A stretch of 64,000 nucleotides of DNA from Kiritimatiellia bacterium. Its GTDB lineage: Bacteria; Verrucomicrobiota; Kiritimatiellia; CAIVKH01. The position numbers and the translations under genes are program-made. Shown one piece after another: positions 1 through 16,335 of this stretch. The DNA lies in the NCBI GenBank assembly GCA_023953695.1, contig JAMLJG010000005.1:7477-71476 (forward strand). Reading direction: 5' to 3'. Each line of letters opens with the position of its first letter. Within the stretch, counting starts at the first letter, position 1. Below the pieces are notes generated by a model. That model had not been told where the DNA came from and did no database searches. It worked only from the letters and a program-made list of their open reading frames with translations.

Positions 1-855
1 CTCGCCTGCGTCATCGGGCAATTCGTGAAAATCGGATTGCTCGATTCGGCTCTTGAGCGCCTCGCGCTCAAACCAATCCACTTCGGACGGATTGAAGAGA
101 TAGAAGTCCACGGGAAGGATTGCGCCCAAGTGATGAAAGAACGTCAGGTGCACCGGCGGCAGCATAGACGGCGCGAAGACGAAAATACGGCGGTATTGCT
201 TTTCGATACCGCACGCGGCGAGATCGGTGTGCATGCGCCGAAAGGCAGCCAGATATGTCTCATCGCGGCGCGTTTCCACCAGCATCCGCCACAGCGCTGG
301 CTCCCAGGCCAACGCGGGGGCGTCCTGCACGCCCACATCCTTTCCTGTTTCCCACGCGAGCATCATCTGCGGACGATAGGAGATATATTGATTCAGGAGT
401 GACGCGAGCCGCCCCGCGAGTTTGAAGCATTTGCGCGGATCGCGCCGCAAGCCATCGCGCGATGTGACATAGCGCTCGATAGGCGCAAAGGTCCCGTCGA
501 GCGTCCCCCCACGCAGTCGCTCAAAAAGTTGCCAGCGCATACTCTTTACCGAGAACGGGTGTTTCTCTGGATCGGGTGTGCCCCCGGTGGGGTGATCCAT
601 CCGGTAGAGCCAGTCGTTGACGAAAAGGCTCAGCAGCGGAAAATCGCAGTTTGCGAGGACGTGCGGGACCGTCGTGCGGGGAGCATCAAAGAGAAACCGC
701 TGTTGGAGCCACGCCTGCTGGGTGCGGTTCGGAACCACCACGCAATCGCGCCGGGCGAATAGGTCGTCGGGAGTGGTCTTGCCCTTCAGGAGCTTGGCGA
801 AAAGGTCATCCGCCAGCCGCTCCAGATTGTTGCCCCAAGAAATCGTCAGTGCCAT
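1..855 (-). CDS. recC: Exodeoxyribonuclease V gamma subunit (RecC), N-terminal part; runs off the window edge
   Basis: Absent from the ORF track because it has no stop in the window. Manual translation from ATG 855 gives MALTISWGNNLERLADDLF...VVVPNRTQQAWLQQRF...ANCDFPLL...KLAGRLASLLNQYISYRPQMMLAWETG...AWEPALWRML...RIFVFAPSMLPPVHL...LFNPS. This parallels the RecC N-terminus (SNRLD..., AANIDFP, ADLFDQYLVYRPDWL, WQAPLW, FTNPC). Confidence 0.9.
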   Translation of the reverse strand, partial: MALTISWGNNLERLADDLFAKLLKGKTTPDDLFARRDCVVVPNRTQQAWLQQRFLFDAPRTTVPHVLANCDFPLLSLFVNDWLYRMDHPTGGTPDPEKHPFSVKSMRWQLFERLRGGTLDGTFAPIERYVTSRDGLRRDPRKCFKLAGRLASLLNQYISYRPQMMLAWETGKDVGVQDAPALAWEPALWRMLVETRRDETYLAAFRRMHTDLAACGIEKQYRRIFVFAPSMLPPVHLTFFHHLGAILPVDFYLFNPSEVDWFEREALKSRIEQSDFHELPDDAGE

Positions 856-880
856 TGCGTTGAAACTTTCATCCTCTCAT

Positions 881-1000
881 CTACTCGATATGGAGGACGA
901 TTTCGAGCCTGATGTGCACGAGGGCTGTTTTCTCTTTTACGCCGGTCAACGCGGACGCCTTCGGCAAGACCTCATCTCGGATGATCAATGTTGTTCTCAT
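881..1000 (-). pseudogene. Truncated VapB-family (RHH) antitoxin fragment, 39 aa
   Basis: Manual translation MRTTLIIRDEVLPKASALTGVKEKTALVHIRLEIVLHIE* resembles the MRTT(L/I)xIDDxLLxxAxxLTGxKEKTALV pattern of VapB antitoxins. It ends early and no PIN toxin follows. Confidence 0.65.
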
Positions 1001-1100
1001 GCATATTCCACTTCGGGTCGCAGAGAGCGCTGCAGGGAAAGCGACATTTACAGATGTGACTGTGATGTTTGTCCAAATCCCTTTTCAACCGCTTTGCATC

Positions 1101-1168
1101 GAAATGGCGAATGCCAGTATTGGCAAAGCGATCCAACGAGTGTTGCAACTATGTGCGGACCGACCCCA
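1101..1168 (+). repeat. 68-bp direct repeat, copy 1 (putative Y1-transposase element end ending ...GGACCGACCCC)
   Basis: gaaatggcgaatgccagtattggcaaagcgatccaacgagtgttgcaactatgtgcggaccgacccca; 63/68 identical to 1443-1510. Positions 1144-1167 are the exact reverse complement of 47017-47040. Confidence 0.85.
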
Positions 1169-1330
1169 CTGCTCCCCCTGCTGCTGACGGCTGGCTGGTG
1201 CGCGTGCGGAGTCGCGGGGATTCTGCTGGCAATTGTTCCGCTACTCGTCTGGCGCGAGGTGCTCAAGCTACGCGCCGATCTTGAGTCGCGCGCCGCGCCG
1301 CGACCCAAAAACGGATACCCAAAGCCGTAA
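1151..1330 (+). CDS. Small membrane-peptide ORF or captured gene fragment (59 aa) whose ATG lies inside the repeat
   Basis: MCGPTPLLPLLLTAGWCACGVAGILLAIVPLLVWREVLKLRADLESRAAPRPKNGYPKP*; hydrophobic segment, followed by a hairpin at 1336-1361. Confidence 0.35.
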   Translation: MCGPTPLLPLLLTAGWCACGVAGILLAIVPLLVWREVLKLRADLESRAAPRPKNGYPKP

Positions 1331-1442
1331 CGCAACACGGCGCGACTCGCGTCGCGTCGTGAATGCAAAACTGTGAATCCGCGATACGTGATTCGACCGA
1401 CCAGTGTCATGGTAACCCGTGGCAATTCGCCCGGAGAAAATT

Positions 1443-1510
1443 GAAATGACGAATGCCAGTATTGGCAAAGCAGTCCAACGAGTGTTGCAACTATATGTGG
1501 ACCGACCCCA
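1443..1510 (+). repeat. 68-bp direct repeat, copy 2
   Basis: gaaatgacgaatgccagtattggcaaagcagtccaacgagtgttgcaactatatgtggaccgacccca; 5 mismatches to copy 1; lies about 90 bp past the RT stop codon. Confidence 0.85.
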
Positions 1511-1599
1511 ATTCCCGCTAATTAAAGAAGAGGGGGTTCTTCATCGGAAAGGGCTGACCCTGGGTGCCACCTCGGTGCGATTCGACGCAATTCTATATT

Positions 1600-3096
1600 T
1601 TAGTACATCCAAGCATTCTCAGTGAAAAGGGCGACCTCATCCGGCTTAACAACCTCCGATTTCTTTGTCGCGTCTGCGATGACAATTTTCGAAGCATCTA
1701 CAGCAGACTTAATTTCTTTGCTAGCTATCCATCCATTCTCCCACAATTCCGCCTTAAGCCCCTTGACGATTTGGCATATTGGTTCATCGCTCTCATATTG
1801 TATTCCGACTGCTTGAGGTATTGAAACGCGCTGCAGCCAAATCTCTAGGTAGCCATTGTAAGGAATGCGACGCATCTTGCTGAGCACCTGGGACCATAGT
1901 CGTTCTTTTTCACCCTTTTCCGCGAATGAGATCAAGCAGCTCAAGATGCCGGCAATGGCCGGAAAGGCAAGAGGCGACACTATGGCAATATCCGTTGCTA
2001 TTGCGACCTGAACCTCGAGATCTTCCGGTTTCTCTTTTTGCTCGGATATCTTCTCGTGAAGCTCTCCGGCAAGGCGGCGCAATGCGCCGCTATTCGGGAA
2101 GCGACGTCCGAATGCATGGAGTCGTAGCAACTGCTTTTGTATGGTCTTTGCGTTCGCGTTCCCAAGATCTTGCAAATCGATACCAGCCTGTTTATCCGGT
2201 TTTATTGAACCTTCAACAATATTTGCGCAGACCATTGTTTTTGATACACCTAATCGCATTCCAACCACACGTAGCTTGTCGCTGACAACCTTGAGAATCT
2301 GCTCCGCTCGCTGATCGTTCTGTGCAAATATACGGTAATCATCTCGGTAGCGAAGAATTCGGAAGTCGTCCTGCCTTGCAAGCTCTTTGGTGATTAAGTC
2401 GTCCACAAATCCAAGGACGATTTCCGCAATAAAATCCATCATGACAGAGCCTTGGGGAATTCCATTGGTTTGACCATAGCGACCGGCTTGCATATGTGAG
2501 TCGATCACATCGCCTAGTAGCTTATTCTTTCCTCGGCTCTCTTTTGATGCCTCTATGCCATGTATAGCCCAAGCAATACTGTGCGTATAAAGTGACCCAT
2601 AACAATCTGTTACATCCGTGTGCAGGAGGTGGCTGTAATTCAAAGAGTACACGAGGGACTTTTGCTCGACACCTTGCCACCAACTCTTTACCTGGGCCGC
2701 TTTATCAGAATTGGCATCCACGGACATAACTGGTGCGCTGCAGCAATCAACAAGGCCGCCTTCAAGCTCTTTCATGCGATTGACGATGAGCGCCCAATTG
2801 GTGGGCTCGCATATCTGGTTGACCAGTGAGACGTATAAGACAGGGTGAATCAATTCAAAAGGGCGCCAACTAAGTCTTCCGTCTTTATTGGCAACAATGG
2901 AATAGTTCACATTTGGCAATAGGCCGGGATTCCTCTCCTTGATCCCCATGAATGAGCCTCCGGCAAGGGCTATCTCTACATCAGTAAGTAGCTTCTCGAA
3001 TGAGATGTATGACGGAAAGTCGCTGTTAAAATAACTGCTGCCCTTCAAGAAGTGCTTTTTTGCCTCTTTGGCGGTATTGTCGATTAATCGCTTCAT
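1600..3096 (-). CDS. Reverse transcriptase, UG/Abi (defence-associated, DRT/AbiK-like) clade, 498 aa
   Basis: Motifs WRPFELIHPVLY, HTDVTDCYGSLYTHSIAWA (motif A), GQTNGIPQGSVMMDFIAE (motif B) and LRYRDDYRIF (motif C), followed by a helical C-terminal extension. No retron NAxxH/VTG motifs and no group II intron domain X/En seen. GC about 45-50% by spot counts versus above 60% in flanking genes. Confidence 0.9.
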   Translation of the reverse strand: MKRLIDNTAKEAKKHFLKGSSYFNSDFPSYISFEKLLTDVEIALAGGSFMGIKERNPGLLPNVNYSIVANKDGRLSWRPFELIHPVLYVSLVNQICEPTNWALIVNRMKELEGGLVDCCSAPVMSVDANSDKAAQVKSWWQGVEQKSLVYSLNYSHLLHTDVTDCYGSLYTHSIAWAIHGIEASKESRGKNKLLGDVIDSHMQAGRYGQTNGIPQGSVMMDFIAEIVLGFVDDLITKELARQDDFRILRYRDDYRIFAQNDQRAEQILKVVSDKLRVVGMRLGVSKTMVCANIVEGSIKPDKQAGIDLQDLGNANAKTIQKQLLRLHAFGRRFPNSGALRRLAGELHEKISEQKEKPEDLEVQVAIATDIAIVSPLAFPAIAGILSCLISFAEKGEKERLWSQVLSKMRRIPYNGYLEIWLQRVSIPQAVGIQYESDEPICQIVKGLKAELWENGWIASKEIKSAVDASKIVIADATKKSEVVKPDEVALFTENAWMY

Positions 3097-3651
3097 AATT
3101 CTTTTCGTCGAACCATTGATTGTCGGGAAGACTTTCCGTGCTGTTGAGTACTACGGAGCTTGTCCGAAAAGCATTCCAAGCCACAATGGCTTCACCTTTG
3201 GTTGCGAGTTTATCGTGTCTGATCTGGGGGACAATGGGAAAAGCGGGATTTTGAAGGGGTTGCCGATCGCAGCCACCCACGGGAAACAGAATGTCGGCGC
3301 CGCGCGCGCTGCGGGAACAATGGCTGAATGGTTCGTCTTTATGCGAGGCGACGCGGGTCTGCATCGCGAGCAGATGCTCGCGGCTGGCGCAGAGGGTGGT
3401 GCGTCCGCAAGTCACTGCATCTAGCACGACTGGGCGATTCTGGATGTGGCGAGGAGTTGGGTGTCAGGAGGCGGATGGGTTCTCGTGTGTTGCGCAGTGG
3501 GATGTGTGCATGCTGAAGTGGCGCGATTGAGGGCGTTCCGTCGTTTCTTGCTCTTGTAATCTGAAGTCGCAGGATTGAAAATTTGAACGCGGCGCCCGAA
3601 TTGTGGTCTATCACCGCATTCGGCGAGTGGGGAGGGCGCCCGGAGCTACGT

Positions 3652-4380
3652 ATGATTAAAGTCAGCAAACTGGTGAAGAACTTTGGCAGTCGCGCGGCGG
3701 TGCGCGATGTGTCGTTTGAGGTGAACCCCGGCGAGGTGTTGGGTTTTCTGGGTCCGAACGGGGCGGGCAAGACCACGACGATGCGGATGATTACGGGCTA
3801 TCTGACCCCTTCATCGGGCCGCGCGTGGATTCAGGGGTTCGATGTCGCGGAAAAGCCGGTCGAGGCGCGGCGGCACTTGGGCTATCTCCCGGAGAACGCG
3901 CCGTCCTATGGCGATATGACGGTGGAGGAGTTCCTTTCTTTCGCTGCGGCGATGCGCGGCTTTGCCGGGAAGGAGGCGCGGCAGCGAATCGGGGAGACGC
4001 TGGAGCGGTGCATTCTCACTTCGGTGCGGCATCAGCCGATTGAAACCCTGTCAAAAGGCTATCGGCAGCGCACGTGTTTTGCGCAGGCGATTCTGCACGA
4101 TCCTCCGGTGCTGATCCTCGACGAGCCGACGGAGGGGCTGGATCCGAATCAAAAGTTTGTGGTTCGCAATATGATTCGCGACATGGCGAAGAACAAGGTG
4201 ATCGTGTTTTCCACTCACATTCTGGAAGAGGTTGAGGCCATCTGCACGCGAGCGATCATTATCAGCGCTGGCCAGGTCGTCGCTGACAGCACCCCTGCGG
4301 AATTGCGGAAGCAGGGTTCGCTGGATCAAGTCTTCCGCTGGCTGACAACGTCGGCCGATATTGGAGGTAGCGCGCGATGA
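3652..4380 (+). CDS. ABC-2 transporter ATP-binding protein (GldA-like)
   Basis: Walker A GPNGAGKT, LSKGYRQR signature, Walker B ILDEP; ATG 3652 chosen as the start. Confidence 0.9.
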   Translation: MIKVSKLVKNFGSRAAVRDVSFEVNPGEVLGFLGPNGAGKTTTMRMITGYLTPSSGRAWIQGFDVAEKPVEARRHLGYLPENAPSYGDMTVEEFLSFAAAMRGFAGKEARQRIGETLERCILTSVRHQPIETLSKGYRQRTCFAQAILHDPPVLILDEPTEGLDPNQKFVVRNMIRDMAKNKVIVFSTHILEEVEAICTRAIIISAGQVVADSTPAELRKQGSLDQVFRWLTTSADIGGSAR

Positions 4381-5114
4381 GCAGTCCGGTTTGCACCATT
4401 CTCAAGCGCGAGTGGAAGGCGTATTTCAATTCGCCCGTCGCGTATGTTTTCATTGTGATCTTTCTGGCGCTCGCGGGATTTTTCACGTTCAACGTGAGTC
4501 GGTTTTATGAGGCGGGGCAGGCGAGTCTGGACCGCTTCTTTTTCTGGCACCCGTGGATTTATCTGATTCTGGTGCCCGCCGTCGCCATGCGACTGTGGGC
4601 GGAGGAGCGGCGCACGGGCACGCTCGAGTTGCTATTGACATTTCCGGTGACGACGGCGCAGGCCATTGCGGGCAAGTTCCTCGCCGCGTGGCTCTTCGTC
4701 CTGCTTGCGCTGGCGCTGACGTTTCCGGTGGTTGCGACGGCGTTCTATCTCGGCTCGCCCGATCCGGGGCCAATCATCACCGGATACATCGGCAGCGCCC
4801 TGCTTGCGGGCGCGTATTTGGCTGTGGGCTCGCTCACATCCGCGCTGACGCGGAATCAGGTGATCAGTTTCATCATCGCCGCTGTGATCGGATTGTTTCT
4901 GCTGCTGGCGGGCTTCCCGCCGGTGACTGATTTCCTCTATCAAGTCGCGCCCGCATGGGTGGTCGAAACCGTTGCGGGCTTCAGTTTCAGCGCGCATTTC
5001 GAGCAGATGCAGCGCGGCGTGCTGGACCTTCGCGACATTCTCTATTTTGCCAGCGCCATGGCGTTCATGCTGCTGGCTACGCATGTGACCTTGGACAACC
5101 GCAGGACGAAGTGA
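4377..5114 (+). CDS. ABC-2 permease (GldF-like)
   Basis: REWKAYFNSPVAY, MRLWAEERRTGTLELLLT, multiple TM helices; ATGA overlap with the upstream gene. Confidence 0.88.
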   Translation: MSSPVCTILKREWKAYFNSPVAYVFIVIFLALAGFFTFNVSRFYEAGQASLDRFFFWHPWIYLILVPAVAMRLWAEERRTGTLELLLTFPVTTAQAIAGKFLAAWLFVLLALALTFPVVATAFYLGSPDPGPIITGYIGSALLAGAYLAVGSLTSALTRNQVISFIIAAVIGLFLLLAGFPPVTDFLYQVAPAWVVETVAGFSFSAHFEQMQRGVLDLRDILYFASAMAFMLLATHVTLDNRRTK

Positions 5115-5121
5115 GCGGACG

Positions 5122-7017
5122 ATGAAGAGATTTGGCATTCATGTTGTGACGGGCGCCGTGGGTTTGATCGTTACCCTGGCGGTGTTGGTGTTGCTCAATG
5201 TCGCGGCAAGCTCGGTGCGCGTGCGCGCCGATCTGACCGCGGAGAAGCTCTACACACTCGCGCCGGGCACGCGCGGGCTGCTGAAGAACCTCGAGCGCGA
5301 TGTGACGTTGAAGTTCTACTTCAGCCGCAGCGCCGATGCCGCGCCAATCAATTTCAAGCAATACGGCAGCCGCATCCTCGATTTGCTGCGGGAGTATGAA
5401 AAGCTCAGTGGCGGACACCTCTCGCTCGAAGTGATTGACCCGCAGCCGGACAGCGACGAGGAAGAATGGGCGCGCCGCTACGGTCTCACCGCGTCGCGCC
5501 TCACGCAGGAGAGCGGTGCGCCTTCCGTGTTTCTCGGTCTCGTGGCCCTGTCGGGCGCGCGCCAGTCGGCGATTCCCTTTTTCTCGCCGGCGGACGAGCC
5601 GCAGCTCGAGTTCTTGATCTCTCGCGCGGTCAATGAAGTGACCGTTGCGAAGAAGCCAAAGATCGCTGTCATTTCGCCCCTGCCGCTGATGGGCGGCTCG
5701 GCGGGCTTCGTACGGCGCGGCCCGAACTTTGATGGATGGATCATCATCAACGAGTTGCGCGCCATTGCAGAAATTGAGGATTTGAGCGGCCAGGTGGAGG
5801 AGATCCCGGCGGATGTGGATACGCTGTTGTTGGTCTATCCGCGAAATCTGCCTGAGGCCACGCTGTATGCCGTGGATCAGTTCGTCCTGCGCGGGGGCCG
5901 CCTCTTCGCGCTGGAGGACCCACAATGCCTAGCCGATCTCGATGCGCAAAGCTCGCAATTTCGCGATCCCAAATCGGCGCAGGCGGATTTGAACGCGCTC
6001 ACGGCGGGGTGGGGCATCAAGATGTCCTCCGATCGCGTTATCGCCGATCCCGCCGCCGCGACGCGGGTGGCCTCGCAACTCGGAGAGGTGCAGCTCAACA
6101 ACTCGTGGCTCACGCTGCGCTCCAGCAACTTCAATCGCGAGGACGTGTCGGTTGCCGCGATGAACATGATGCAATTCCCGATGACGGGGTGGTTCGAGGT
6201 TCAGCCCGTTGACGGACTCACCGTCACACCGTTGATCACAGCGGGGCCGGAGGCCGGGAGCGTTTCGATCATCGAAGCCACCTCGGGCACCTTCGCGGGG
6301 AAAACCACTTTTGAGAAGGCGACGAACGCCTTGCCCATCGCGATCCGCGTGAGTGGACATTTCAAGACCGCCTTTCCCAACGGCCGACCCAGCAACGTTC
6401 CCGCTGGCGCGACCCATGCGCCTCCGTCCGAACCCGATGCGACGCATCTTGCCGAGAGCGTCCGCGATGGCACGGTCGTGCTGGTGGCCGATGCCGACTT
6501 CCTTTATGACGCATTCGCCGCGCGGCGCCTCCCGATGTTCGGGCCAGGTGTCTATCAGTTGATGAACGACAACATCAATTTCGCCGCGAATGTGGCCGGA
6601 CAACTTGCCGGTGGCGATGCGCTGATTGCGCTGCGCGGGCGCGGCACCTTCGAGCGCCCGTTCACACGTGTGCTCGCGTTGCGGACCTCCGCGCAGGAGA
6701 AGTGGCGGGAGCAGGAACTCAAATTGCAAGAGCAGCTCGCCACCACACAAGCCAACCTGGATCGCCTGCAATCGGGCAAGTCGGAAGATCAGCAGCTCAT
6801 CATTTCGCCCGAACAGCGGCAGGAAATTGAGCGTTTCCGCGCGCAACAACTTGAGACGCGGCGCGCGCTCAAAGAAGTGCGCAAAAATCTGAATCATGAA
6901 ATTGAAGCCCTCGGTCTGTGGGTCAAGGCGCTGAATATCGGCGCTATGCCAGGACTCGTTATCCTGTTCGGCCTGGCGCACGGCTGGCGTCGGCGCCGCC
7001 GTGCGCGCAGTCGCTGA
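5122..7017 (+). CDS. GldG-like ABC-type auxiliary component
   Basis: N-terminal TM, RADLTAEKLYTL, DQFVLRGGRL, C-terminal coiled coil plus TM; operonic with GldA/F-like genes. Confidence 0.85.
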   Translation: MKRFGIHVVTGAVGLIVTLAVLVLLNVAASSVRVRADLTAEKLYTLAPGTRGLLKNLERDVTLKFYFSRSADAAPINFKQYGSRILDLLREYEKLSGGHLSLEVIDPQPDSDEEEWARRYGLTASRLTQESGAPSVFLGLVALSGARQSAIPFFSPADEPQLEFLISRAVNEVTVAKKPKIAVISPLPLMGGSAGFVRRGPNFDGWIIINELRAIAEIEDLSGQVEEIPADVDTLLLVYPRNLPEATLYAVDQFVLRGGRLFALEDPQCLADLDAQSSQFRDPKSAQADLNALTAGWGIKMSSDRVIADPAAATRVASQLGEVQLNNSWLTLRSSNFNREDVSVAAMNMMQFPMTGWFEVQPVDGLTVTPLITAGPEAGSVSIIEATSGTFAGKTTFEKATNALPIAIRVSGHFKTAFPNGRPSNVPAGATHAPPSEPDATHLAESVRDGTVVLVADADFLYDAFAARRLPMFGPGVYQLMNDNINFAANVAGQLAGGDALIALRGRGTFERPFTRVLALRTSAQEKWREQELKLQEQLATTQANLDRLQSGKSEDQQLIISPEQRQEIERFRAQQLETRRALKEVRKNLNHEIEALGLWVKALNIGAMPGLVILFGLAHGWRRRRRARSR

Positions 7018-7045
7018 ACCGGGCGAGCGAAGTGGAGAACACTCG

Positions 7046-8167
7046 ATGAAATCACGAACCCTCATTCTCTTGCTGATTGTCCTCGTCGCGCTGGCGATGT
7101 TCATTTCCAAGGTCGGTCGGCGCTCGCACGAGGCCTCGCCCACAGAGTTGGGCCAGCGGGTGCTGCATACGAAGGATATCAACGCGATTGAGCGGATTGA
7201 GCTGACCAGCGGGACGCAACAGGTGGTTCTTGCTCGGACGGATGGCGAATGGGCGGTCGGATCGCTGTGGGACTATCCCGCGCAGTTCGAGCCGATCGCT
7301 GCGCTTTTGCGGCAACTCGATCAGTTGCGCGTGGGAGAGGTGATTCGCGGCGGCACCGAGATTTTAGATGAATTCGGCCTCGCGGAGAGCGCAACGAGCT
7401 TTCCGGTTCGGGTGAAGCTGTTTGAATCGGCGGACACGGCGACTGACGATTTGCTCATCGGCCTGCCTCGCACATCCTCTGCCATGCCCGCGGGCTTCTC
7501 GATGCCGGACAGTCGGTACTATCGCTCGGGCGATGGAGAGGTTGTCATTGCCGAGCCGTTTGTGGAAGAGGTGCGCCGCCGACCCACCGACTGGATTGTT
7601 TCAAAGCTGCCGAGTTTCGGACCCAGTGAGATCGGTTCGATGACTGCCTATCCGACAAATGGCGCAATGTATGCCCTCGATCGAGATGCAGACGGCACCT
7701 ACAGCGGCGCAGGAGCGCTCACAGGAAAGGTCATCAATGTGGCCAGCGCTGAAATCTGGTTTCGCTCGCTCCAGAACCTTTCGACGCGCTCCATTGTGGA
7801 TCCGGCCACCGATGCAAAAGCGCTCGCGCGCGGCGCGAGCGGCAGCGCCGTTGCGCACTTGACCAACGGCATTGTCGTGCGCGTGGAACTCGGCGCGCTC
7901 ACGCCGGAGAATATGGGTCACTACGGCTGGCTCACGTTCACCTACGAGGAACCTCCCGCGCTTGCGCACGGCGAGGAAGCGGCGCTGGCCGCGGATCGCG
8001 CCGCTCGCGATGCGGCGCGCGAGGAAGCTGAGAAACTGCAGGCAAGATATGGCCACTGGATTTACGTCTTCGACTACAGCCAAGCCACCAAACTCCTCTT
8101 CCTTCCCGACCAGCTAATCGTGGCGAACGCCGCGCCTCCTCCGCTGCCGCCCGCCGCGAAAGATTAG
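7046..8167 (+). CDS. DUF4340-like membrane-anchored protein
   Basis: MKSRTLILLLIVL anchor, W...WDYPA, EFGL, LLIG, PTDW motifs; typical fourth gene of Gld-like ABC operons. Confidence 0.7.
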   Translation: MKSRTLILLLIVLVALAMFISKVGRRSHEASPTELGQRVLHTKDINAIERIELTSGTQQVVLARTDGEWAVGSLWDYPAQFEPIAALLRQLDQLRVGEVIRGGTEILDEFGLAESATSFPVRVKLFESADTATDDLLIGLPRTSSAMPAGFSMPDSRYYRSGDGEVVIAEPFVEEVRRRPTDWIVSKLPSFGPSEIGSMTAYPTNGAMYALDRDADGTYSGAGALTGKVINVASAEIWFRSLQNLSTRSIVDPATDAKALARGASGSAVAHLTNGIVVRVELGALTPENMGHYGWLTFTYEEPPALAHGEEAALAADRAARDAAREEAEKLQARYGHWIYVFDYSQATKLLFLPDQLIVANAAPPPLPPAAKD

Positions 8168-8296
8168 CAGCACCAGCCGAAATTAAGTCGCCCATTTATT
8201 GCGCAACAGATTGGTGGTCAGACTGTTGCGACAGCCTGTCGAAAAGTCTGGAAGTTTGCAGCGGCGCGTTGTCTAGTCGTTCTCACAGGTTCAACT

Positions 8297-8839
8297 GTGA
8301 AAACGACGACAAAAAGTAAGAAGCATTCGCGAGTCACGATCCGGGAAATGGCGCTCCGAGATTTGAGTGACGTGTATGAGTTAGGCGCCCAGCTCTTCAC
8401 TGCGGAGAAATGGCCGACGCTGTATCGCGCGTGGGACGAGCATGAGATTCTCAATTTGTTCAACTCCGAGAGCGAGTATTGCCTTGTGGCGGAGTGCGAT
8501 GAGGTCATTGTTGGATTTGCGTTGGGCACGATGATGCGCAAGCCGCGGAACTCGTGGTCCTACGGCTGGTTGCTTTGGCTTGGCGTATCGCCGCGCTTCA
8601 AGCGGCGTGGGCTTGGCGGGCGGCTCATCAACAAGCTCACGGACACATTCATTGACGATGGCGCGCGCATGATGTTGGTGGACACCGACGCGCAGAACAA
8701 GACGGCGTTGGGCCTGTTTCGCAAGATGGGATTTGCCGACGAGATGAACCATGTCTATCTCTCGAAGAATCTTCATGCCCATCCGCGCTACATCGAGCGC
8801 ACGCTCGACGAAGAAGAGTGGGAAGACGAGATCGGCTGA
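8297..8839 (+). CDS. GNAT family N-acetyltransferase
   Basis: LGVSPRFKRRGLGGRL acetyl-CoA motif and NKTALGLFRKMGF. Confidence 0.88.
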   Translation: MKTTTKSKKHSRVTIREMALRDLSDVYELGAQLFTAEKWPTLYRAWDEHEILNLFNSESEYCLVAECDEVIVGFALGTMMRKPRNSWSYGWLLWLGVSPRFKRRGLGGRLINKLTDTFIDDGARMMLVDTDAQNKTALGLFRKMGFADEMNHVYLSKNLHAHPRYIERTLDEEEWEDEIG

Positions 8840-9033
8840 CCCGCGCCGATTCGCCGCGCCCCAGCACAGAGTCCCAGCGAGTCACCTGCGCAACCGATAT
8901 CCAGTTGAGCGCGTTCGCGTCGCTATCTCACTCGGTGCAGGCCAAAAGGGCTGATTGTGCTCTATTTGCGACCTGCCTTGTGCTATCATTGCTCGGCAAG
9001 GGCACGAGGCGGGAGCAGCAAGCGAGGTGATGT

Positions 9034-10266
9034 GTGAAGGTATTGCACACGGCGGATTGGCATTTGGGGAAATCCCTGTATCAAAAGCGGCGCTATGAGG
9101 AATTTGAGGGATTCCTGAAGTGGTTGGTGACGACTCTTCGCGACCGGCAGGTGGATGCGTTGTTGGTCGCGGGGGATATTTTTGACACGGGGACGCCGAG
9201 TATCAAGGCGCAGGAGTTGTACTACGAATTTCTGGCGGATGTCGCGCGCGAGACGCCGTGTCGCCACGTGGTGGTGACGGGGGGCAATCACGATTCTCCG
9301 TCGTTTCTGGATGCGCCCAAGCGGGCGTTGCGAGCGCTGAATGTTCATGTGGTGGGGAGTGCGGCGGATAATCCAGAGGATGAAGTGCTGACGCTTCGCG
9401 ATTCGGCGGGTGACGTGGAGCTGATTGTCGGAGCGGTGCCGTATCTGCGCGACCGCGACGTCCGAGCATCGGAGGCGGGCGAGAGCGTTGAGGAGAAGGG
9501 GCGGAAGTTGGTGGAGGGGATTCGCGCACACTATACGGCGGTTGGCGCGGAGGCGGAGCGGCAGCGAGCGGGGCTGCGCGATCGGGTGCCGATTGTGGGT
9601 ATGGGCCATCTTTTCGCGGCGGGGGGACAGATGGGCGAGGGGGTGCGCGATCTGTACGTGGGCGGTCTTGGGCAGGTTTGTGCGGAGGTGTTTCCTTCGT
9701 GTTTCGACTATCTGGCCTTGGGGCATTTGCATGTGCCGCAAAGCGTGGGCGGACGGGAGACCTTCCGCTATAGCGGGTCTCCGATTCCAATGGGGTTCGA
9801 TGAAGCGAAGCGGAAGCAGAGTGTTTGTCTTGTGCATTTTGAGGGGCGGTCGGCGTCTGTCGAGTTGTTGGACGTGCCGCGGTTACAACGATTGGAATCG
9901 GTCAAGGGCGATTGGTCTGCGATTGCGCGGCAGCTCGGAGCGTGGGTTCAGGAAGATGCGAGTTGCTGGGTGGAAGTGGAGTACAGCGGCGCGGAGATCA
10001 TCGGCAATCTGCGCGAGCAGATCGGCCGCGAGGTCGAGGGATCTCGGGTCGAAGTCATTCAGGTGAAGAATCCTCCGGCGATGAGGCGATTCCTGGAGGA
10101 GGCCGAGGGCTACAGTTCGCTGGCAGAGTTGCGGGTTGAGGATGTTTTCGAGCGGTGTCTGGATGCCAACGATATTCCGGCGGCGCAGCGCGATTCGTTG
10201 GTGGCTGTATTTCGCGAGGCGATGCTGGGGTGGGAGCAGCGCAAGTCCGAAGGGGTGGTGAGCTAG
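9034..10266 (+). CDS. sbcD: Exonuclease SbcD
   Basis: HTADWHLG, AGDIFD, GNHDS, ALGHLH and YSGSP metallophosphoesterase motifs; directly upstream of sbcC. Confidence 0.95.
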   Translation: MKVLHTADWHLGKSLYQKRRYEEFEGFLKWLVTTLRDRQVDALLVAGDIFDTGTPSIKAQELYYEFLADVARETPCRHVVVTGGNHDSPSFLDAPKRALRALNVHVVGSAADNPEDEVLTLRDSAGDVELIVGAVPYLRDRDVRASEAGESVEEKGRKLVEGIRAHYTAVGAEAERQRAGLRDRVPIVGMGHLFAAGGQMGEGVRDLYVGGLGQVCAEVFPSCFDYLALGHLHVPQSVGGRETFRYSGSPIPMGFDEAKRKQSVCLVHFEGRSASVELLDVPRLQRLESVKGDWSAIARQLGAWVQEDASCWVEVEYSGAEIIGNLREQIGREVEGSRVEVIQVKNPPAMRRFLEEAEGYSSLAELRVEDVFERCLDANDIPAAQRDSLVAVFREAMLGWEQRKSEGVVS

Positions 10267-10269
10267 GCC

Positions 10270-13200
10270 ATGAAGATTCTGCAGATACGATTTCAGAATC
10301 TGAACTCGCTGACGGGCGAGTGGGCGATTGATTTCACAAACTCGGCGTATGCGGAAGAGGGCCTCTTTGCCATTACGGGGCCGACGGGCGCGGGGAAGAC
10401 CACCATCTTGGATGCGATTTGTTTGGCGCTGTATGGGAAGACCCCTCGGTTGGATCGCATCACCAAGTCCGAGAACGAGGTGATGTCGCGGCAGACGGGC
10501 GAATGTTTTGCCGAGGTGACGTTTGCGACGAATACGGGTCGCTATCGCTGTCGTTGGAGCCAGCGCCGCGCGCGCAAGAAGCTCGATGGCGAGTTGCAGC
10601 AGCCCGAGCGCGAACTGGCGAATGCGGACACGGGCAAAATCTTGGAATCTCAACTCCGCGGCGTCGAGGCGAGGATCGAGGAGATCACGGGGATGGACTT
10701 CGCGCGTTTTACCCGGTCCATGATGTTGGCGCAGGGCGCGTTTGCGGCTTTTCTGAAAGCCAGCGCCGACGAGCGGGCTCCCATTCTGGAACAGATCACG
10801 GGCAGCGAGGTCTATAGCGAGATATCCCAGTTTGTTCACGAGCGCCAACGAGAGGAGCGCGGAAAGCTCGATGCGTTGAAGGCCGAGTTGTCGGGAATCA
10901 CGATTCGCGACGACGAGTGGGAAGCGCAGGTCCGACAGGCGATTGCGGACGAGCAAGGGAAGGAGGACGCGCAGGCACGCGAGTTGAAGGCAACGGAAGG
11001 CGCCATCCAATGGCGACGCGCGATTGCCGAGATGGAGAAGGAGATTGCCTCCTTGACGGGTGAGGCCGCGCGGTTGCAGGAGGAAGGTCGGAACTTCGCG
11101 CCGCTTGCCGAGCAGTTGAAGCGAGCGGAATCAGCCGCCACGCTGGACTCCGTGCACGCGGAGCTCAAGACTCATCGCGAAGCGCAAGAAGATCGAGTGG
11201 GCCGCTTGAGCCAGTTCAAACAAAGTCTTCCCGAGTTGGAGGCGGCGCTCGCAGCTCAGGTGCGCGAAGCGGAGGCTGCGGAGCGGAAAGTGGAGGAGAC
11301 GAAAAGCGCGATTGATGAGGCCGAGCCAATCTGGCGGCGGGTGCGCGAACTCGATCAGAGCATTGCAGCGCATGCGGAGCAGGCGGCGGCCCTTGCTGAG
11401 CAGTGCGCGGGAACCGAAGCGAAGATCAGCGATCAGGAATCCGAGCTGGCACGCTATCGCACTGCCGGTGAGAAGGCGGCTAAAGAACTCGATCTTTGCG
11501 CTCGCTACCTGAAGGAGAACGCGCGGGATGAGGCCCTGTTCAGCGGACTCGCCGGAGTCCGAGAGCAGGTGAAGGCCGATAGCGCCAGGCGCGACGAGCT
11601 TGCAGAAAATGAGGACGAGCTCAAGGCTGCAAGGCGCGCTTTGGTCAAGGCAGACGCGGAGAAGAAGGGAGCAGAAAAGGCGCTGGAGAGTCAGCGCAAG
11701 GCGATGGAGGCGCAAGAGGAGGCGCTTGCAGAGCAGCAGAAGAAGTTGAGTGCGATCTTGAAGCGACGCACGCTGCGAGACTATCGCGCGGAGAAGGATG
11801 CGCTGCAGCGTGAACGCGTGCTGCACACTAAGATTGCCGAGTTGGAGGCAGAGCGCGCGCACTTGGAAGATGGCAAGCCCTGTCCGCTCTGCGGCGCGAC
11901 GGAGCATCCCTATGCGCAGGGAAGCACTCCCGCTGTTAGCGAGGTGGATACGAAAATTGATGTGTTGGAGAGACAGATTCGGGCCGCCGAGAAGATGGAA
12001 GAGCAGGTCAAACGGAGCGAGCGAGCGGTTGCAGAGCAGAAGGAGAAGTTCTCGCAGATCAAGGAAGCGGCCGCGCTCGCAGGTCGCGATGTCACGAGCG
12101 GGAGAAAGCAGATCGAGCGGCTTGAAAAAGCTCTCGCGAAGGCGCGCATCGCACGGGAGGGTCAGCGCGCGACGATTGTGAAGAGCTTTGAGCGCTTTGG
12201 TGTCGCGTATGACGATGCAAAAGCCGACGCGGCGCTCAAGTCGCTCGAGGCTCGGTCGAATGCGTGGCAGCAGCACACGCAGCAGCGCACCGAAGTTGAG
12301 AAGCTGTTGGGCGCGATCAGCGGCGAGCTCAAGAAGGTCGCCGCCGTGATTGCGTCGGAGCGCACACGGTTATCGAAAGAGCAAAAGGATCGGGACAACG
12401 CGAACGCGAAACTCGCTGCGATGCGGAGGGAACGCAGCGAGCTCTTCGGCGCGAAGCGTCCGGACGATGAGGAGCGAAAGGTTCGATCCACTCTTCTCGC
12501 GTGTGAGCGGGCTGCGAAAGAGCAGCGCGCGCAGCGCGAGCAACTGCAGAAGCGCGTTGACGAACAGAAAACGCGCAAAGGAGCGCTGGAGGCCGAGATT
12601 GCAAAGCGGGCTCCGGAACTCAACGCGCTTGCCGCGAATTTTTCGGCGAAGTTGAAGAGTCTGCATCTGGAGTCTGAAGAAGAATACGTGCGGCAGCGAC
12701 TTTCGCCGGAGCGCCGACAGGCGCTCAAGAAGCAGGCCGACGACTTGGCGAAGCGCGGGACCCAACTGCAAAGCCGGCAAGCGGATCGCCAACGGCGGTT
12801 GACGGACCAGCTTGCGCGCGCGGTGACGGAAGAATCCCTGGAGGCGTTGGAACCGCGCGCGGAAGAGTTGCAGCGGGCGTTGGGCGTTGTGCGCGAACTG
12901 ATGGGCGGGCTGCGCAGCCAACTGCAGCAGAACGCGGAAGCCAAGGAGCGAATCGGCGCAAAGCAAGCGGGTATAGACGCGAAGCAGCAAGAGTGTTTGC
13001 GGTGGGACAATCTTCACGCGTTGATCGGTTCGGCGGATGGGAAGAAGTTCCGAAACTTTGCGCAAGGGCTGACGTTCCAGGTGATGATTGGCTTCGCGAA
13101 CAAGCAGTTGCAGCGCATGACGGATCGGTATCTGCTCACGCGCAGTCGGGAGAATCCGCTGGATCTGTGCGTGGTGGACAACTATCAGGCGGCGGAAGTG

Positions 13201-13512
13201 CGTTCGACCCAGAATCTATCGGGTGGCGAAAGTTTCATTGTCAGTCTGGCTTTGGCATTGGGCCTTTCGCAGATGGCGAGTCAGAAGGTGAAGGTGGATT
13301 CGCTCTTTCTCGACGAAGGATTTGGGACGCTGGACGAGGAAGCGCTCGAGGCGGCCCTTGAAGCGCTTGCCACCGTGCAGCAGAGCGGAAAATTGATTGG
13401 CGTGATTTCGCACGTGGCGAGCATGAAGGAGCGAATTGGCACGCAGATCGTCGTCACGCCGAAGAGCGGCGGGCGGAGTCAGTTATCCGGACCGGGGTGC
13501 AGCGCGGGTTGA
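10270..13512 (+). CDS. sbcC: Exonuclease SbcC (SMC-like ATPase)
   Basis: Walker A GPTGAGKT, long coiled coil, zinc hook CPLCG, LSGGE, LFLDEGFGTLD. Confidence 0.95.
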   Translation: MKILQIRFQNLNSLTGEWAIDFTNSAYAEEGLFAITGPTGAGKTTILDAICLALYGKTPRLDRITKSENEVMSRQTGECFAEVTFATNTGRYRCRWSQRRARKKLDGELQQPERELANADTGKILESQLRGVEARIEEITGMDFARFTRSMMLAQGAFAAFLKASADERAPILEQITGSEVYSEISQFVHERQREERGKLDALKAELSGITIRDDEWEAQVRQAIADEQGKEDAQARELKATEGAIQWRRAIAEMEKEIASLTGEAARLQEEGRNFAPLAEQLKRAESAATLDSVHAELKTHREAQEDRVGRLSQFKQSLPELEAALAAQVREAEAAERKVEETKSAIDEAEPIWRRVRELDQSIAAHAEQAAALAEQCAGTEAKISDQESELARYRTAGEKAAKELDLCARYLKENARDEALFSGLAGVREQVKADSARRDELAENEDELKAARRALVKADAEKKGAEKALESQRKAMEAQEEALAEQQKKLSAILKRRTLRDYRAEKDALQRERVLHTKIAELEAERAHLEDGKPCPLCGATEHPYAQGSTPAVSEVDTKIDVLERQIRAAEKMEEQVKRSERAVAEQKEKFSQIKEAAALAGRDVTSGRKQIERLEKALAKARIAREGQRATIVKSFERFGVAYDDAKADAALKSLEARSNAWQQHTQQRTEVEKLLGAISGELKKVAAVIASERTRLSKEQKDRDNANAKLAAMRRERSELFGAKRPDDEERKVRSTLLACERAAKEQRAQREQLQKRVDEQKTRKGALEAEIAKRAPELNALAANFSAKLKSLHLESEEEYVRQRLSPERRQALKKQADDLAKRGTQLQSRQADRQRRLTDQLARAVTEESLEALEPRAEELQRALGVVRELMGGLRSQLQQNAEAKERIGAKQAGIDAKQQECLRWDNLHALIGSADGKKFRNFAQGLTFQVMIGFANKQLQRMTDRYLLTRSRENPLDLCVVDNYQAAEVRSTQNLSGGESFIVSLALALGLSQMASQKVKVDSLFLDEGFGTLDEEALEAALEALATVQQSGKLIGVISHVASMKERIGTQIVVTPKSGGRSQLSGPGCSAG

Positions 13513-13558
13513 GGCGCAGTTCGCTATAGCTCGAGCAATCGCTCTCGCGCAGGCGACC

Positions 13559-15187
13559 TCAGTGGCGGAAATGGCGCATGCCGGTGAAGGCCATCGCAAT
13601 GCCGTATTGGTCGCAGGCGGCGACGACTTCTTCATCCTTGCGCGAGCCGCCGGGTTGGACGACATAGCGGAGTCCGGCCTCGGCCGCTTGCTCGATAGTG
13701 TCGGGGAAGGGGAAGAAGGCGTCGGAGATCAACACACATTCGCGGATGGTTTGATCGCGAAACTCTTTGAATGAAACGCCGTAGGTGTTTTGTTTCTCGT
13801 ACAGCGCGGCGAGATTATCTTCGGCGCGCGGAACGGCGAGTTTGCGCAGCGAGTCCACGCGGTTGGGTTGACCCGCGCCCATGCCGAGCAGGGTATAGCG
13901 GTTAGGAGCGTATTCCCGCACGATCGCGATGGCGTTGGACTTGATGTGCTTGCAGACCTTGATCCCGAATTCGGCGAGGGCCTTCTTTTCTTCGGGAAAC
14001 AGCGCGGCTGTGGGCACCATCCATTGAGAGAGCGTTTCGGCGTCGCGGTCCTGCATGAGCAGGCCGCCGTTGACTTGGCGGAGCACGGAGCCGGGGGCCG
14101 GTGGGGCGAGGGGGGAGCGCAGTTTGAGGAGGCGCAGTTGCTTGCTCTTGGCGCGGAGAAACTCAAGGGCATCGGCGTCGTATTCCGGCGCGATGAGTAC
14201 TTCGATGAAGCGATTGGCGGTGAGCTGCGCGGTGGCGAGGTCCACTGTTGCGGTGGTGGCGATGACACTGCCGAATGCGGAAACCGGGTCGCCCGCCCAA
14301 GCGGCCTCGAAGGCTTCCGCGAGTGTGTTGCCGGTGGCGAAGCCGCACGGATTGCCGTGCTTGACGATGGCGACGCCGGGCCGCCCGGCGAGTTCGCGGA
14401 CCGCTTCGAGGGCGGCATCGCCGTCGAGGTAGTTGTTGTAGGACATCTCCTTGCCGTGAAGGATGTCGGCGTGCGCGATGCAGGCTTCGTCTGTCTCGGG
14501 ATAGCGATAGAACGCGGCGTCCTGGTGTGGATTTTCGCCGTAGCGCAGGCGTTCTCCGGAGGCGAACGAGAAGCTGAACGGAGGCGCATCGGATTTGGCG
14601 CTCTGGCTGCTCAAATACGACGCGATCGCGCCGTCATAGCGCGCCTGCTGTGCAAAGACTTTGACCGCGAGCTCGCGGCGCAGTTCCGGCGTCGTATCGC
14701 CGCCGTGTGCGTTCAGCTCGGCCAATACGCGCGCGTAGTCGGCCGGATCGGTGACGACAGTGACCGACGCGTAATTTTTTGCGGCGGAGCGAAGCATGGT
14801 CGGGCCACCGATATCAATGTTCTCGATTGCGTCGTGCAGGGAGATGTCGGGTTTGGCAATGGTGGATTCGAAGGGGTAGAGATTGACCGCCACGAGATCA
14901 ATGTGTTGCAGGCCGTGTTGGGCCATGGTGGCCTCGTGTTCCTTGTTGCCGCGCAGGCAGAGCAGTCCGGCGTGTACGTTGGGATGAAGAGTTTTGACGC
15001 GGCCATCGAGCATTTCGGGGAAGCCGGTGAAGTCGGCGACATCTTTGACGGAAAGACCTGCAGCTTTGAGCGCTTTCGCCGTGCCGCCGGTGGAGAGAAG
15101 TTCGATGCCGAGTTCGGCGAGACCTTTGGCAAACTCTACGAGCCCGGATTTGTCGGAAACACTCAAAAGCGCGCGTTGAATTTTCAT
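13559..15187 (-). CDS. purH: Bifunctional AICAR transformylase/IMP cyclohydrolase
   Basis: [51 protein letters not shown]. Confidence 0.97.
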
Positions 15188-15297
15188 AAGAGGAATCTCT
15201 GGGCTTGGATGTGGGGACTACGGGAACGGAGTACTGGAATAGACGTCATCGCGCCACTCTGAATTCGAGTTGGAGATGTGTCGGGGGTCATGGGCGA

Positions 15298-16326
15298 CTA
15301 GACGAGCACGGCTTTGCCCGATCCTTTTTCGACGTGGCCAATGACAACAGGTTTCTCGCCCGCCGAACGGAGGGTTGCGAGGGCGCGGTTGACGTCGGAG
15401 GGGCGGACGGCAATCACGTAGCCGATGCCCATGTTGAAGACGCGATACATTTCGTCCGGGTGAACATTGCCTGCGTCCTGGATGAATTGAAAAATGGGGA
15501 GGGGCGTCCAGGTGGACGTGTCCACCACGGCGTTGGTTTTCTTGGGGAGGATGCGAGGCAGATTATCGGGGAAGCCTCCTCCGGTGATGTGCGCCATTCC
15601 ACGGACCTTGACCTTTTTCATCAGCGCTTGGACGGGCTTGAGATAGCTCCGATGGACCGCGAGGAGGACATCCGCGACGGTTTGGGTGGTTCCGGGGAAC
15701 GTGTCATCGCACTCGAGTTGCGCTTTGCGAAATACCACCGCGCGGGCGAGTGAATAGCCGTTGGTATGCGGTCCGGATGAGGGGAGACCGATGAGCGTGT
15801 CGCCCGGCCTAATGTCTGCGCCGGTGATGAGTTTCTTCTTTTCGACTGCGCCGATGATGGTGCCGACGAGATCGTATTCTCCGTTCGGATAGAGATCGGG
15901 GAGTTCGGCGGTTTCGCCGCCGATGAGCGCACAGTCGTTCTCGCGGCAAGCCTTGCAGAGGCCTTCGATGAGTTGCGCCATGACGGACTGATCAATCTTT
16001 CCGAGGCCGATGTAGTCGAGGAAGAAGAGCGGGCGCGCGCCCTGCACAAGGATATCGTTGACGCAGTGATTGACGATGTCCTGGCCGACCGTGTCGTGGC
16101 GGCCCGCGCGCACGGCAACTTTGAGTTTTGTGCCGACTCCATCCGCGCTGCTGACGAGGAGGTGGTCTTTCCCGGGGGATTTAAAGAGGCCGCCGAATGA
16201 ACCGAAGTCGCCGACGACGCCGGAGGTGTAGGTCTGCGCAATTCGCTTTTTCGCGCGGGCGAGCGCGGTCATTTTCGCGTCAATATCAACGCCGCTGGCT
16301 CCGTATGCGCTGGACTTCTTTTTCAT
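15298..16326 (-). CDS. purM: Phosphoribosylformylglycinamidine cyclo-ligase
   Basis: YGASGVDI, DGVGTK, GGETAE, HTNGYSL, AHITGGG, VFNMGIG. Confidence 0.97.
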   Translation of the reverse strand: MKKKSSAYGASGVDIDAKMTALARAKKRIAQTYTSGVVGDFGSFGGLFKSPGKDHLLVSSADGVGTKLKVAVRAGRHDTVGQDIVNHCVNDILVQGARPLFFLDYIGLGKIDQSVMAQLIEGLCKACRENDCALIGGETAELPDLYPNGEYDLVGTIIGAVEKKKLITGADIRPGDTLIGLPSSGPHTNGYSLARAVVFRKAQLECDDTFPGTTQTVADVLLAVHRSYLKPVQALMKKVKVRGMAHITGGGFPDNLPRILPKKTNAVVDTSTWTPLPIFQFIQDAGNVHPDEMYRVFNMGIGYVIAVRPSDVNRALATLRSAGEKPVVIGHVEKGSGKAVLV

Positions 16327-16335
16327 GGGGTCTCC

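Follow-up and report, generated by a model that had tools for sequence, protein, structure and literature searches.

A probable single-gene Abi-P2 reverse transcriptase in a Kiritimatiellia genome and the possible spread of its subfamily in integron cassettes

We analysed a stretch of 64,000 nucleotides (nt) from a Kiritimatiellia bacterium (GenBank assembly GCA_023953695.1, contig JAMLJG010000005.1; hereafter the window), near one end of which an open reading frame (ORF) of 498 amino acids encodes a reverse transcriptase (RT). Our results suggest that this ORF is intact and very likely encodes a member of the Abi-P2 family (UG/Abi class 1 RTs), and that it would constitute a single-gene abortive infection (Abi) system, as judged from profile matches, conserved residues and a predicted structure. 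An earlier reading of the same DNA, made from the sequence alone, had proposed a stand-alone, horizontally acquired RT of the UG/Abi type that acts in phage defence and possibly represents an uncharacterised subtype in a little-studied lineage. We find the window RT to be an ordinary, typical member of a known family. By itself the RT is therefore of little weight, since the founding Abi-P2 already has a solved structure and known biochemistry.

Assignment to the Abi-P2 family

Classification with the PADLOC hidden Markov models, which the sequence-only reading had suggested as a check, assigned the protein to AbiP2 (E 1.9e-184, 612.1 bits), with residues 1-495 aligned to positions 4-487 of the 489-position profile. 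This score is 3.7 times that of the next PADLOC model. The runners-up were UG14 (167.5 bits), Drt6 (145.7 bits) and Drt4 (up to 131 bits), and the AbiK models reached 88 bits. The RT of pro147, a P2-like phage, scored 531.5 bits on the same AbiP2 model, which suggests that the window protein lies nearer to the centre of the family. Sequence comparisons pointed to the same family: tblastn against phage records matched P2-EC30 (E 6e-68) and P2-EC58 (E 2e-71) at ~31% identity over 99% of the query, and phmmer against the PDB sequences retrieved 7r08_A (E 2.4e-68) over residues 1-487.

The predicted structure is consistent with this assignment. Abi-P2 has been described as a bilobal protein composed of an RT and a helical domain (Figiel et al. 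2022, PMC9508834). An AlphaFold2 model of the window protein, built from a 22-sequence alignment (predicted local distance difference test, pLDDT, 70.7; predicted template modelling score, pTM, 0.73), reproduced this fold with moderate confidence, with an RT palm and fingers and a C-terminal alpha-helical, HEAT-like domain. The helices of the model extend from about residue 293 to residue 495, and its C-terminal part is all-helical. When the model was searched with Foldseek, the top six matches were the six chains A-F of the Abi-P2 structure 7R08 (query-based TM-score, TMq, 0.79-0.80; E ~4e-24). The scores then dropped to 0.56-0.60 for DRT4, DRT6 and UG15 and to 0.51-0.53 for AbiK.

Motif A, GIPQG, YRDD and the helical C-terminus, which had been noted from the letters alone together with the intactness of the ORF, are all present in the translation or in the model. 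Motif A of the translated ORF reads D161-V-T-D164-CYGSLYTHSIAWA (D161-x2-D164), and the translation also contains G212-I-P-Q-G216 and Y250-R-D-D253. We aligned the window protein with a paralog from the same genome (described below) and 20 homologs (n = 22) and found Y30, D161, Q215-G216 and Y250-R-D-D253 to be invariant in 22/22 sequences. In the phmmer alignment, the window segment FPSYISF, which contains Tyr30, pairs with the segment LPAYINF of 7R08, which contains Tyr61; this shows that the position of the tyrosine is conserved. The YRDD of the window protein likewise pairs with the YRDD of 7R08, and the longer segment YRDDYRIF is common to both. Because Tyr282 of Abi-P2 is the Y of YRDD (PMC9508834), the numbering of Figiel et al. 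2022 is anchored to the PDB chain. The YRDD motif had been called unusual in the sequence-only reading. Since 7R08 carries the same YRDDYRIF segment and Y(R/V)DD is presented in a review as the common Abi active site and a hallmark of these proteins (PMC8632793), the motif is in fact ordinary for the family.

Compared with the Abi-P2 of P2-EC30/P2-EC58 (7R08), the window RT belongs to the same family by profile, sequence and predicted fold, and it has the same length class, YRDDYRIF segment and position of the predicted priming tyrosine; it also shares the combination of an RT lobe and a helical lobe, the single-gene organization and a guanine-plus-cytosine (GC) content below that of the host. 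It differs in that the two are ~29-31% identical and that the window RT belongs to a very uniform 498-amino-acid subclade found across many phyla. Moreover, the phage genes occupy a P2 prophage hotspot, whereas the window RT is chromosomal, in a Kiritimatiellia-like genome, and has integron-type flanks. DRT4, DRT6 and UG14 share the architecture of an RT with alpha-helical repeats and provide the next-best profile and fold matches, but they remain at 120-168 bits versus 612 bits, at TM-scores of 0.56-0.60 and, for the NCBIfam Drt4 model (NF041749), at 117 versus a cut-off of 450. Published work describes DRT4 as forming hexamers that carry out protein-primed, untemplated synthesis of single-stranded DNA (ssDNA); its priming Tyr125 is located in the palm, whereas that of Abi-P2 is located in a fingers loop. 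AbiK of Lactococcus lactis (PDB 7R06, 7R07, 7Z0Z) is of the same class, being a protein-primed, template-independent DNA polymerase, and its priming tyrosine lies in the alpha2-alpha3 fingers loop, as in Abi-P2 (PMC9508834). The window RT is nevertheless distant from AbiK in the profile and fold scores given above, and the helical domains are unrelated in sequence.

Two other classifications of the protein were considered. One is that it represents a new UG/DRT subtype that merely resembles Abi RTs. The ~31% identity to the founding Abi-P2 would allow this, as would the NCBIfam search, where all models stayed under their cut-offs (Drt3b, for instance, scored 107.6 versus 350), and the Pfam search, where the generic RVT_1 core alone was recognized (43.9 bits, residues 152-290). 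Yet the AbiP2 profile matches the protein end to end, far above any other model and above the score of the pro147 RT, which is itself closely related to the founding P2 RTs. The TM-score is 0.80 to 7R08 versus at most 0.60 to any other RT, and the priming tyrosine and YRDDYRIF are kept. We regard a new subtype as highly improbable, and the 612-bit match and the TM-score to 7R08 likewise speak against the uncharacterised subtype suggested earlier. The other classification would make the protein the RT of a retron, a group II intron, a diversity-generating retroelement (DGR) or a CRISPR-associated module whose partners were overlooked. It could draw on weak, sub-threshold NCBIfam matches to a group II intron RT (44.6 versus a cut-off of 300) and to the retron St85 RT (23.6 versus 235). 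However, TM-scores to retron, DGR and group II intron RTs are 0.19-0.39, no Rfam family was found in 856-3582 at E<=1, the neighbouring genes are recC and ABC genes, and relatives of the RT show no conserved non-coding flank. This second classification is effectively refuted. The sequence-only reading had also reported no intron, DGR or Cas context, and we saw no Cas, DGR or intron features at the RT locus; a grouping with retron or group II intron RTs, which it had named as the outcome that would contradict it, is not what the fold and NCBIfam scores indicate.

The Abi-P2 assignment brings with it a candidate mechanism. Abi-P2 represents 75% of RT-type Abi systems, making it the most abundant RT-type Abi family, and the role of such RTs in phage defence, as claimed in the sequence-only reading, is published for this family: with the founding Abi-P2, the plating of T5 fell by over 7 logs, an effect that was lost when the YRDD region was deleted (PMC8632793). 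Abi-P2 is reported to form trimers in solution and a dimer of trimers (hexamer) in the crystal, and to synthesize DNA without a template or a nucleic-acid primer; this synthesis is abolished by Y61F and is not abolished by Y46F (PMC9508834). The protein is described as having neither RT motif 7 nor a thumb (PMC8632793; PMC9508834). By analogy with the E. coli P2-prophage Abi-P2, AbiK and DRT4, the window protein would assemble as trimers or hexamers, and the hydroxyl of Tyr30 would prime untemplated ssDNA synthesis at the YRDD site. The DNA would remain covalently bound and lodge in the channel that separates the RT lobe from the helical lobe. Upon phage infection, either the synthesis activity or the binding of the product by a phage ssDNA-binding or replication protein would lead to cell arrest or death. 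AbiK has been connected with phage single-strand annealing proteins (PMC8632793), and DRT4 is reported to produce protein-primed ssDNA constitutively and to be activated by a phage protein resembling single-stranded-DNA-binding proteins and by raised deoxynucleotide pools, with an abortive outcome. Judged by these analogies, the most likely mechanism is abortive infection brought about by protein-primed, untemplated ssDNA synthesis. More tentatively, the RT might be transcribed from the attI-like element that lies upstream of it.

Relatives, genomic context and acquisition

The family is large and widespread. We searched 5.8 billion clustered proteins and scored 8000 candidates, among which at least 4642 proteins matched at E<=1e-10. 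The best 120 matches were all 498-509 amino acids long and 66-75% identical to the window RT; those with names came from Aromatoleum, Spongiibacter, Thioalkalivibrio, Donghicola and Thermodesulfobacteriota. A scan of metagenomes gave 589 candidate stretches, of which 552 were confirmed as relatives; we kept the best 80 (52-69% identity), a non-random sample. More distant relatives (36-42% identity) were present on 14 viral-contig loci, and a Paracoccus plasmid carries a solo homolog (52.6% identity) between insertion sequence (IS) elements. On a plasmid of Agrobacterium leguminum (NZ_CP119973.1; locus L026, 6001-7495), we observed a 66.8%-identical match in two pieces, for which the plasmid's gene table lists no coding sequence, near an IS110 transposase; this homolog is probably a frameshifted pseudogene.

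The RT genes had a mean GC content of 0.455 over the 80 loci (range 0.333-0.555). Relative to their flanks (58 loci with a flank of at least 800 nt), they were lower by more than 0.03 in 31 loci and higher in 7. This predominantly lower GC content fits with frequent transfer. Abi-P2 is likewise described as occupying a variable, AT-rich part of P2 prophages (PMC8632793).

No recurrent partner was found. Clustering of 160 neighbouring ORFs from the 54 loci with usable flanks yielded 152 clusters, and the largest comprised 3 loci on near-identical contigs. A blastn comparison of 400-nt flanks (66 upstream and 63 downstream sets) revealed no family-wide conserved non-coding sequence, and the flanks of the window RT matched none of the relatives' flanks. 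These results agree with the stand-alone organization proposed earlier and suggest that the RT acts as a single gene, without a conserved partner or non-coding RNA, an RNA conserved in structure only being beyond the reach of this search. We further scanned the immediate neighbours of relatives, taking 86 of the 89 that were listed and omitting three near-duplicates. No Pfam family was assigned at E<=1e-5 to 50 of the 86. Another 16 were of restriction or defence type: Mrr (three), TIR/ThsB/SEFIR (three), Type ISP (two), C5-methylase, NgoFVII, PIN_12, Schlafen/AlbA_2, FRG, T5orf172, Fic and HerA. The set also included two integrases and three exonucleases, and RecC-type proteins were found in none of the 86. 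In phage pro147, the RT homolog adjoins a retron. The defence-type neighbours support a defence role through guilt by association.

In the window, the downstream neighbour of the RT is the N-terminus of recC (positions 1-855, minus strand, Pfam Exonuc_V_gamma), 745 nt downstream and on the same strand. The plus strand encodes, from position 3583, an ABC ATPase, an ABC-2 permease, a GldG-type auxiliary protein, a DUF4340 protein and a GNAT protein. The best named match of the GldG-family protein (~62% identity) is to metagenome-assembled genomes of Kiritimatiellia, consistent with the little-studied lineage that the sequence-only reading had supposed. We considered a functional link between recC and the RT and rejected it, as the adjacency does not recur; the absence of RecC among the neighbours of relatives makes the arrangement in the window look coincidental. 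There is no tRNA gene within 40 kb of the RT, and an Rfam search of window positions 1-6000 (E<=1) returned three weak, sub-threshold matches, all located at 4577-5335.

The distribution and composition of the gene indicate that it is horizontally acquired, in line with the earlier proposal. It was detected in 0/6 genomes of the same genus (87-96% complete), and a search of the genomes of 40 relatives returned two weak partial matches in addition to the source genome (hereafter G000). Its GC content is 0.476, against 0.609 for window positions 3600-20000 and 0.598 for the whole 2.62-Mb assembly; in windows of 400 nt, values are 0.453-0.515 over 1401-3200 and ~0.56-0.65 past 3200. The AT-richness relative to neighbouring genes, already noted from the letters, is also a trait of the Abi-P2 family. 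The closest congener (G002) keeps recC and the ABC operon in synteny, with ~2.4 kb of other DNA between them, which suggests that the site is variable and constitutes a hotspot for cargo. The insert of G002 (locus L020, G002:C43:67500-72500) carries, at 1709-2776 and 3013-3792, an IS200-like Y1 transposase ORF whose N-terminal segment is duplicated, along with an alpha/beta hydrolase.

The source genome encodes a second Abi-P2 paralog (G000 C9:37499-38962; L009 1510-3021, minus strand; L023 4491-6428), which, like the integron-type flanks, the sequence-only reading had missed. The paralog is 43% identical to the window RT and scores 645.9 bits on the PADLOC AbiP2 model. It is located among genes of a type I restriction-modification system, all on one strand: hsdM, a DUF1016/YhcG nuclease, hsdS, the RT, DUF6978, DUF1828/1829 and hsdR. 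We built a quick maximum-likelihood tree of 68 rows with IQ-TREE. The window RT fell inside a 61-row clade of 498-amino-acid relatives (SH-aLRT 87), and the paralog grouped with one Elusimicrobiota sequence and one viral-contig sequence in a separate, fully supported clade. This suggests that the two copies were acquired independently. Abi-P2 is thereby extended to a barely studied lineage of the Planctomycetes-Verrucomicrobia-Chlamydiae (PVC) group, with two independently acquired copies in one 2.6-Mb genome.

Several observations weigh against a functional Abi-P2 defence gene at this locus. The window RT lies outside any obvious defence island, its neighbours being recC and the ABC operon. 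A scan for sigma-70-type promoters found 2 promoter-like sites versus 2.4 expected, under a sigma-70 model that may not suit this lineage, and the terminator scan found 0 intrinsic terminators. The identity to the sole biochemically characterized Abi-P2 is ~29-31%, and the confidence of the AlphaFold2 model is moderate, with 70 residues at a pLDDT below 50. Finally, we found no established route from Abi-P2 DNA synthesis to abortive infection, including the trigger and the killing step, in the literature covered. It is conceivable that an Abi-P2 homolog is no longer defensive here and is either the silent remnant of a stranded cassette or recruited elsewhere, for example to a function linked to recBCD. 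The apparent decay of the 3' recombination site and the absence of an adjacent integrase (see below) would fit with such a fate, as would the undetected promoter, the position outside a defence island and the location of recC 745 nt downstream on the same strand. Nevertheless, the ORF is intact and all the family-invariant residues are kept, RecC-type proteins are absent among the 86 neighbours of relatives, and the promoter scan may simply not apply to this lineage. We consider a loss or change of function unlikely and favour a single-gene abortive-infection system.

Integron cassettes among relatives and integron-type flanks of the window copy

For the subfamily the connection to integrons is strong, and for the window copy it is partial. 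In one relative (L103), textbook attC sites (GCCTAAC...GTTAGGC, ~-48 kcal) are found on both sides of the RT: the first is 132 nt long and ends 19 nt before the start codon, and the second, of 129 nt, begins 19 nt past the stop codon. Strict attC sites were present on one side of the RT at five other loci (L081, L102, L096, L076 and L045). We scanned 400 kb of relatives' DNA for strict sites and found 18 sites, 8 of which abut the RT. A more sensitive search for the locus's own boxes was made at the 63 loci with 80 nt on both sides of the RT, and 16 of them presented a 7/7 R'/R'' pair: GTTCGGC/GCCGAAC in eight, GTTAGGC/GCCTAAC in six, and two other types. A control with pairing across loci (200 permutations) gave a mean of 3.07 and a maximum of 7, and these values are inflated by the box types shared among loci. 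Some of the loci are near-duplicates, since L102 and L103 are the same and L048 differs very little from L055. An attC fold was obtained for 14 of the 16 box-paired loci, by a procedure that the window copy fails. In addition, L070 has an integron integrase ~3 kb upstream of the RT, and the rows flagged as cassettes are dispersed over many subclades of the 68-row tree.

We propose tentatively, and at slightly less than even chances, that the uniform 498-amino-acid Abi-P2 subfamily has spread across phyla largely as an integron cassette, and that the window copy was caught at a secondary attI-like site, where it became fixed after decay of its attC. If confirmed, the cassette link would show concretely how single-gene RT defence could travel so widely, and it would supply a natural set of minimal, self-contained RT cassettes for functional work. 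The integron 'defence biobank' would then include an RT-based abortive-infection gene among its recurrent cargo, and this would account for the compactness, solo organization and host-independent GC content of the RT gene. We did not find a link between integrons and Abi-P2/AbiP2 in the literature; it may be listed in the supplementary tables of papers on integron defence, which lie outside our search. The terms 'reverse transcriptase', 'DRT', 'Abi-P2' and 'retron' are all absent from the main text of a 2024 preprint (Darracq et al.). The general principle is known: a 2026 review reports 783 anti-phage systems in the integron cassettes of 30,000 genomes. Like the anti-phage integron cassettes described so far (Darracq 2025, Kieffer 2025), the window RT is a compact, single-ORF defence gene with G|TT-type junctions. 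It differs from them in having no foldable attC and no adjacent intI, and its 1.5 kb is large for a cassette.

The 5' flank of the window copy carries an integron-type feature. The gene is abutted by an attI-like element that ends, in the sense of the RT, with AATCAATG-GTTCGAC, and this box (3113-3107) lies 10 nt before the ATG. The other copies of the element in the genome are found at C34:133201, C1:212007, C1:53891 and C8:58376 (69-82% identity). All five align up to AATCAATG-GTT[C/G]GAC and then diverge, and an unrelated ORF begins 10-60 nt further on. The copy at C1:53891 extends over the beginning of a divergent gene for an integron integrase (TIGR02249, 453.5 bits versus a cut-off of 265). 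This integrase (G000 C1:53998-54999; L122 13999-15000) is the one intact integrase of the genome, and four element copies are without integrase, the C8 copy keeping a 16-residue remnant of the IntI N-terminus. An integron integrase is encoded in 7/7 genomes of the genus, and the sole element copy of G002 (G002:C51:3883-3959) is 42 nt from the intI ortholog. The presence of element copies beside intI in both G000 and G002 suggests that the element is the attI-side region of the clade's integron.

Three of the other copies are followed by what appear to be real cassettes. Their boxes, GTTCGAC or GTTGGAC, have a 7/7 reverse complement 0-9 nt past the stop codon of the cargo, with a chance expectation of 0.001-0.002 each. 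We reconstructed their attC sites by joining the R'' side to the cassette's own 5' TTSGAC and folded them with ViennaRNA, which gave imperfect hairpins of the classic attC kind, at -36.4 kcal for 100 nt, -27.5 kcal for 102 nt and -17.1 kcal for 60 nt, with R''/R' pairing of 7/7 in each. The cargo ORFs encode a zinc-ribbon/transmembrane protein, a 164-amino-acid membrane-anchored protein and a secreted protein of 127 amino acids.

The same evidence is weaker for the window RT, and a number of results count against its identification as a cassette. The box past its stop codon, GTCGAAT, matches GTCGAAC, the reverse complement of the 5' GTTCGAC, at 6/7 positions, and the chance of at least 6/7 in 20 positions is ~0.035, versus the 7/7 matches of the three cargos. 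The 3' flank shows no attC fold (best -0.13 kcal/nt versus -0.27 to -0.36 for the three real cassettes), and its folding z-score against shuffled sequences is 0.2. A strict scan for canonical attC sites (RYYYAAC...GTTRRRY, at least 6/7 complementary positions) detected none at window positions 1-6000. It detected none in the array next to the real intI either and is thus too strict, because R' boxes in arrays are hybrids. Furthermore, no integrase is found beside the RT, as the intI of this genome is on contig C1. The window copy therefore shows a cassette-type 5' junction and a putative R'' remnant, but no functional-looking attC. More tentatively than for the subfamily, we suggest that the window RT may have arrived as an integron gene cassette at an attI-like site and that its attC has since decayed; the window copy would be, at best, a fossil cassette.

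Coordinates and minor observations

Table 1. Positions of the features discussed in the text. Positions are in the window unless a contig of the source genome (C1, C4, C8, C21, C34, C39) is given.
Feature	Position	Strand	Remark
Abi-P2 family reverse transcriptase gene	1600..3096	minus	ATG-initiated ORF, 498 amino acids and stop codon
RT palm and fingers; C-terminal helical domain	within 1600..3096	minus	~residues 1-290; ~residues 293-498
Codons of catalytic motif C, Y250-R251-D252-D253	2338..2349	minus	translates to YRDD
Codon of Tyr30, predicted priming tyrosine	3007..3009	minus	PSYIS context
attI-like element, ~150 nt	3107..3259	minus	abuts the 5' end of the RT; 5 copies in the genome
R''-like box GTCGAAT	1580..1586	minus	13 nt past the stop codon
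71-nt direct repeat, copy 1	1098..1168		~240 nt upstream of the recC start
71-nt direct repeat, copy 2	1440..1510		downstream of the RT; carries GTTGGAC in the RT sense
Cassette arrays of G000	C1:~50.7-54 kb; C34:~130-133.4 kb; C1:~207-212 kb; C8:~58.3-66 kb		
Copies of the ~310-nt element	C34:132240-132547, 130280-130587; C1:211214-211523, 207313-207626, 51564-51852, 50782-51060; C8:61025-61331, 65843-66150		
Further sites of the 24-nt core	~47017-47040; C21:5941, C21:26372, C21:27762, C34:126997		
tmRNA gene	48927-49280		tag ANEELALAA
tRNA-Gly(GCC) gene	44197-44271		flanks the tmRNA gene
tRNA-Arg(ACG) gene	49360-49436		flanks the tmRNA gene
Segments with copies elsewhere in G000	902-1006; 3330-3444		copies at C39:89636-89740 and C4:620-735

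Besides the attI-like element, the genome contains a repeated element of ~310 nt with 15-bp terminal inverted repeats (Table 1), which starts at a GTTAGCG box and is always located beside cassette regions. Identity to the C34 reference is 95-99.7% for six of its eight copies and 83% for a divergent one. The candidate explanations for this element are an ORF-less cassette, an unusually long attC, or a miniature inverted-repeat transposable element that targets integrons.

The two copies of a 71-nt direct repeat are found between the RT and recC (92% identity, spacing 342). We considered this repeat as a possible attC of the RT and rejected it: its folds are unremarkable (z -0.9 and -2.7), and its 24-nt core occurs at 7 sites in varied contexts. 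The core (GGGGTCGGTCCGCACATAGTTGCA) often follows GGAATA and is found at 93-100% identity in 4/6 congeners; one possible reading is a promoter or regulatory motif specific to this lineage. One copy of it lies ~1.9 kb from a gene for transfer-messenger RNA (tmRNA), which is itself flanked by two tRNA genes. Finally, two short segments of the variable region, one on either side of the RT, are 79-83% identical to copies on contigs C39 and C4.

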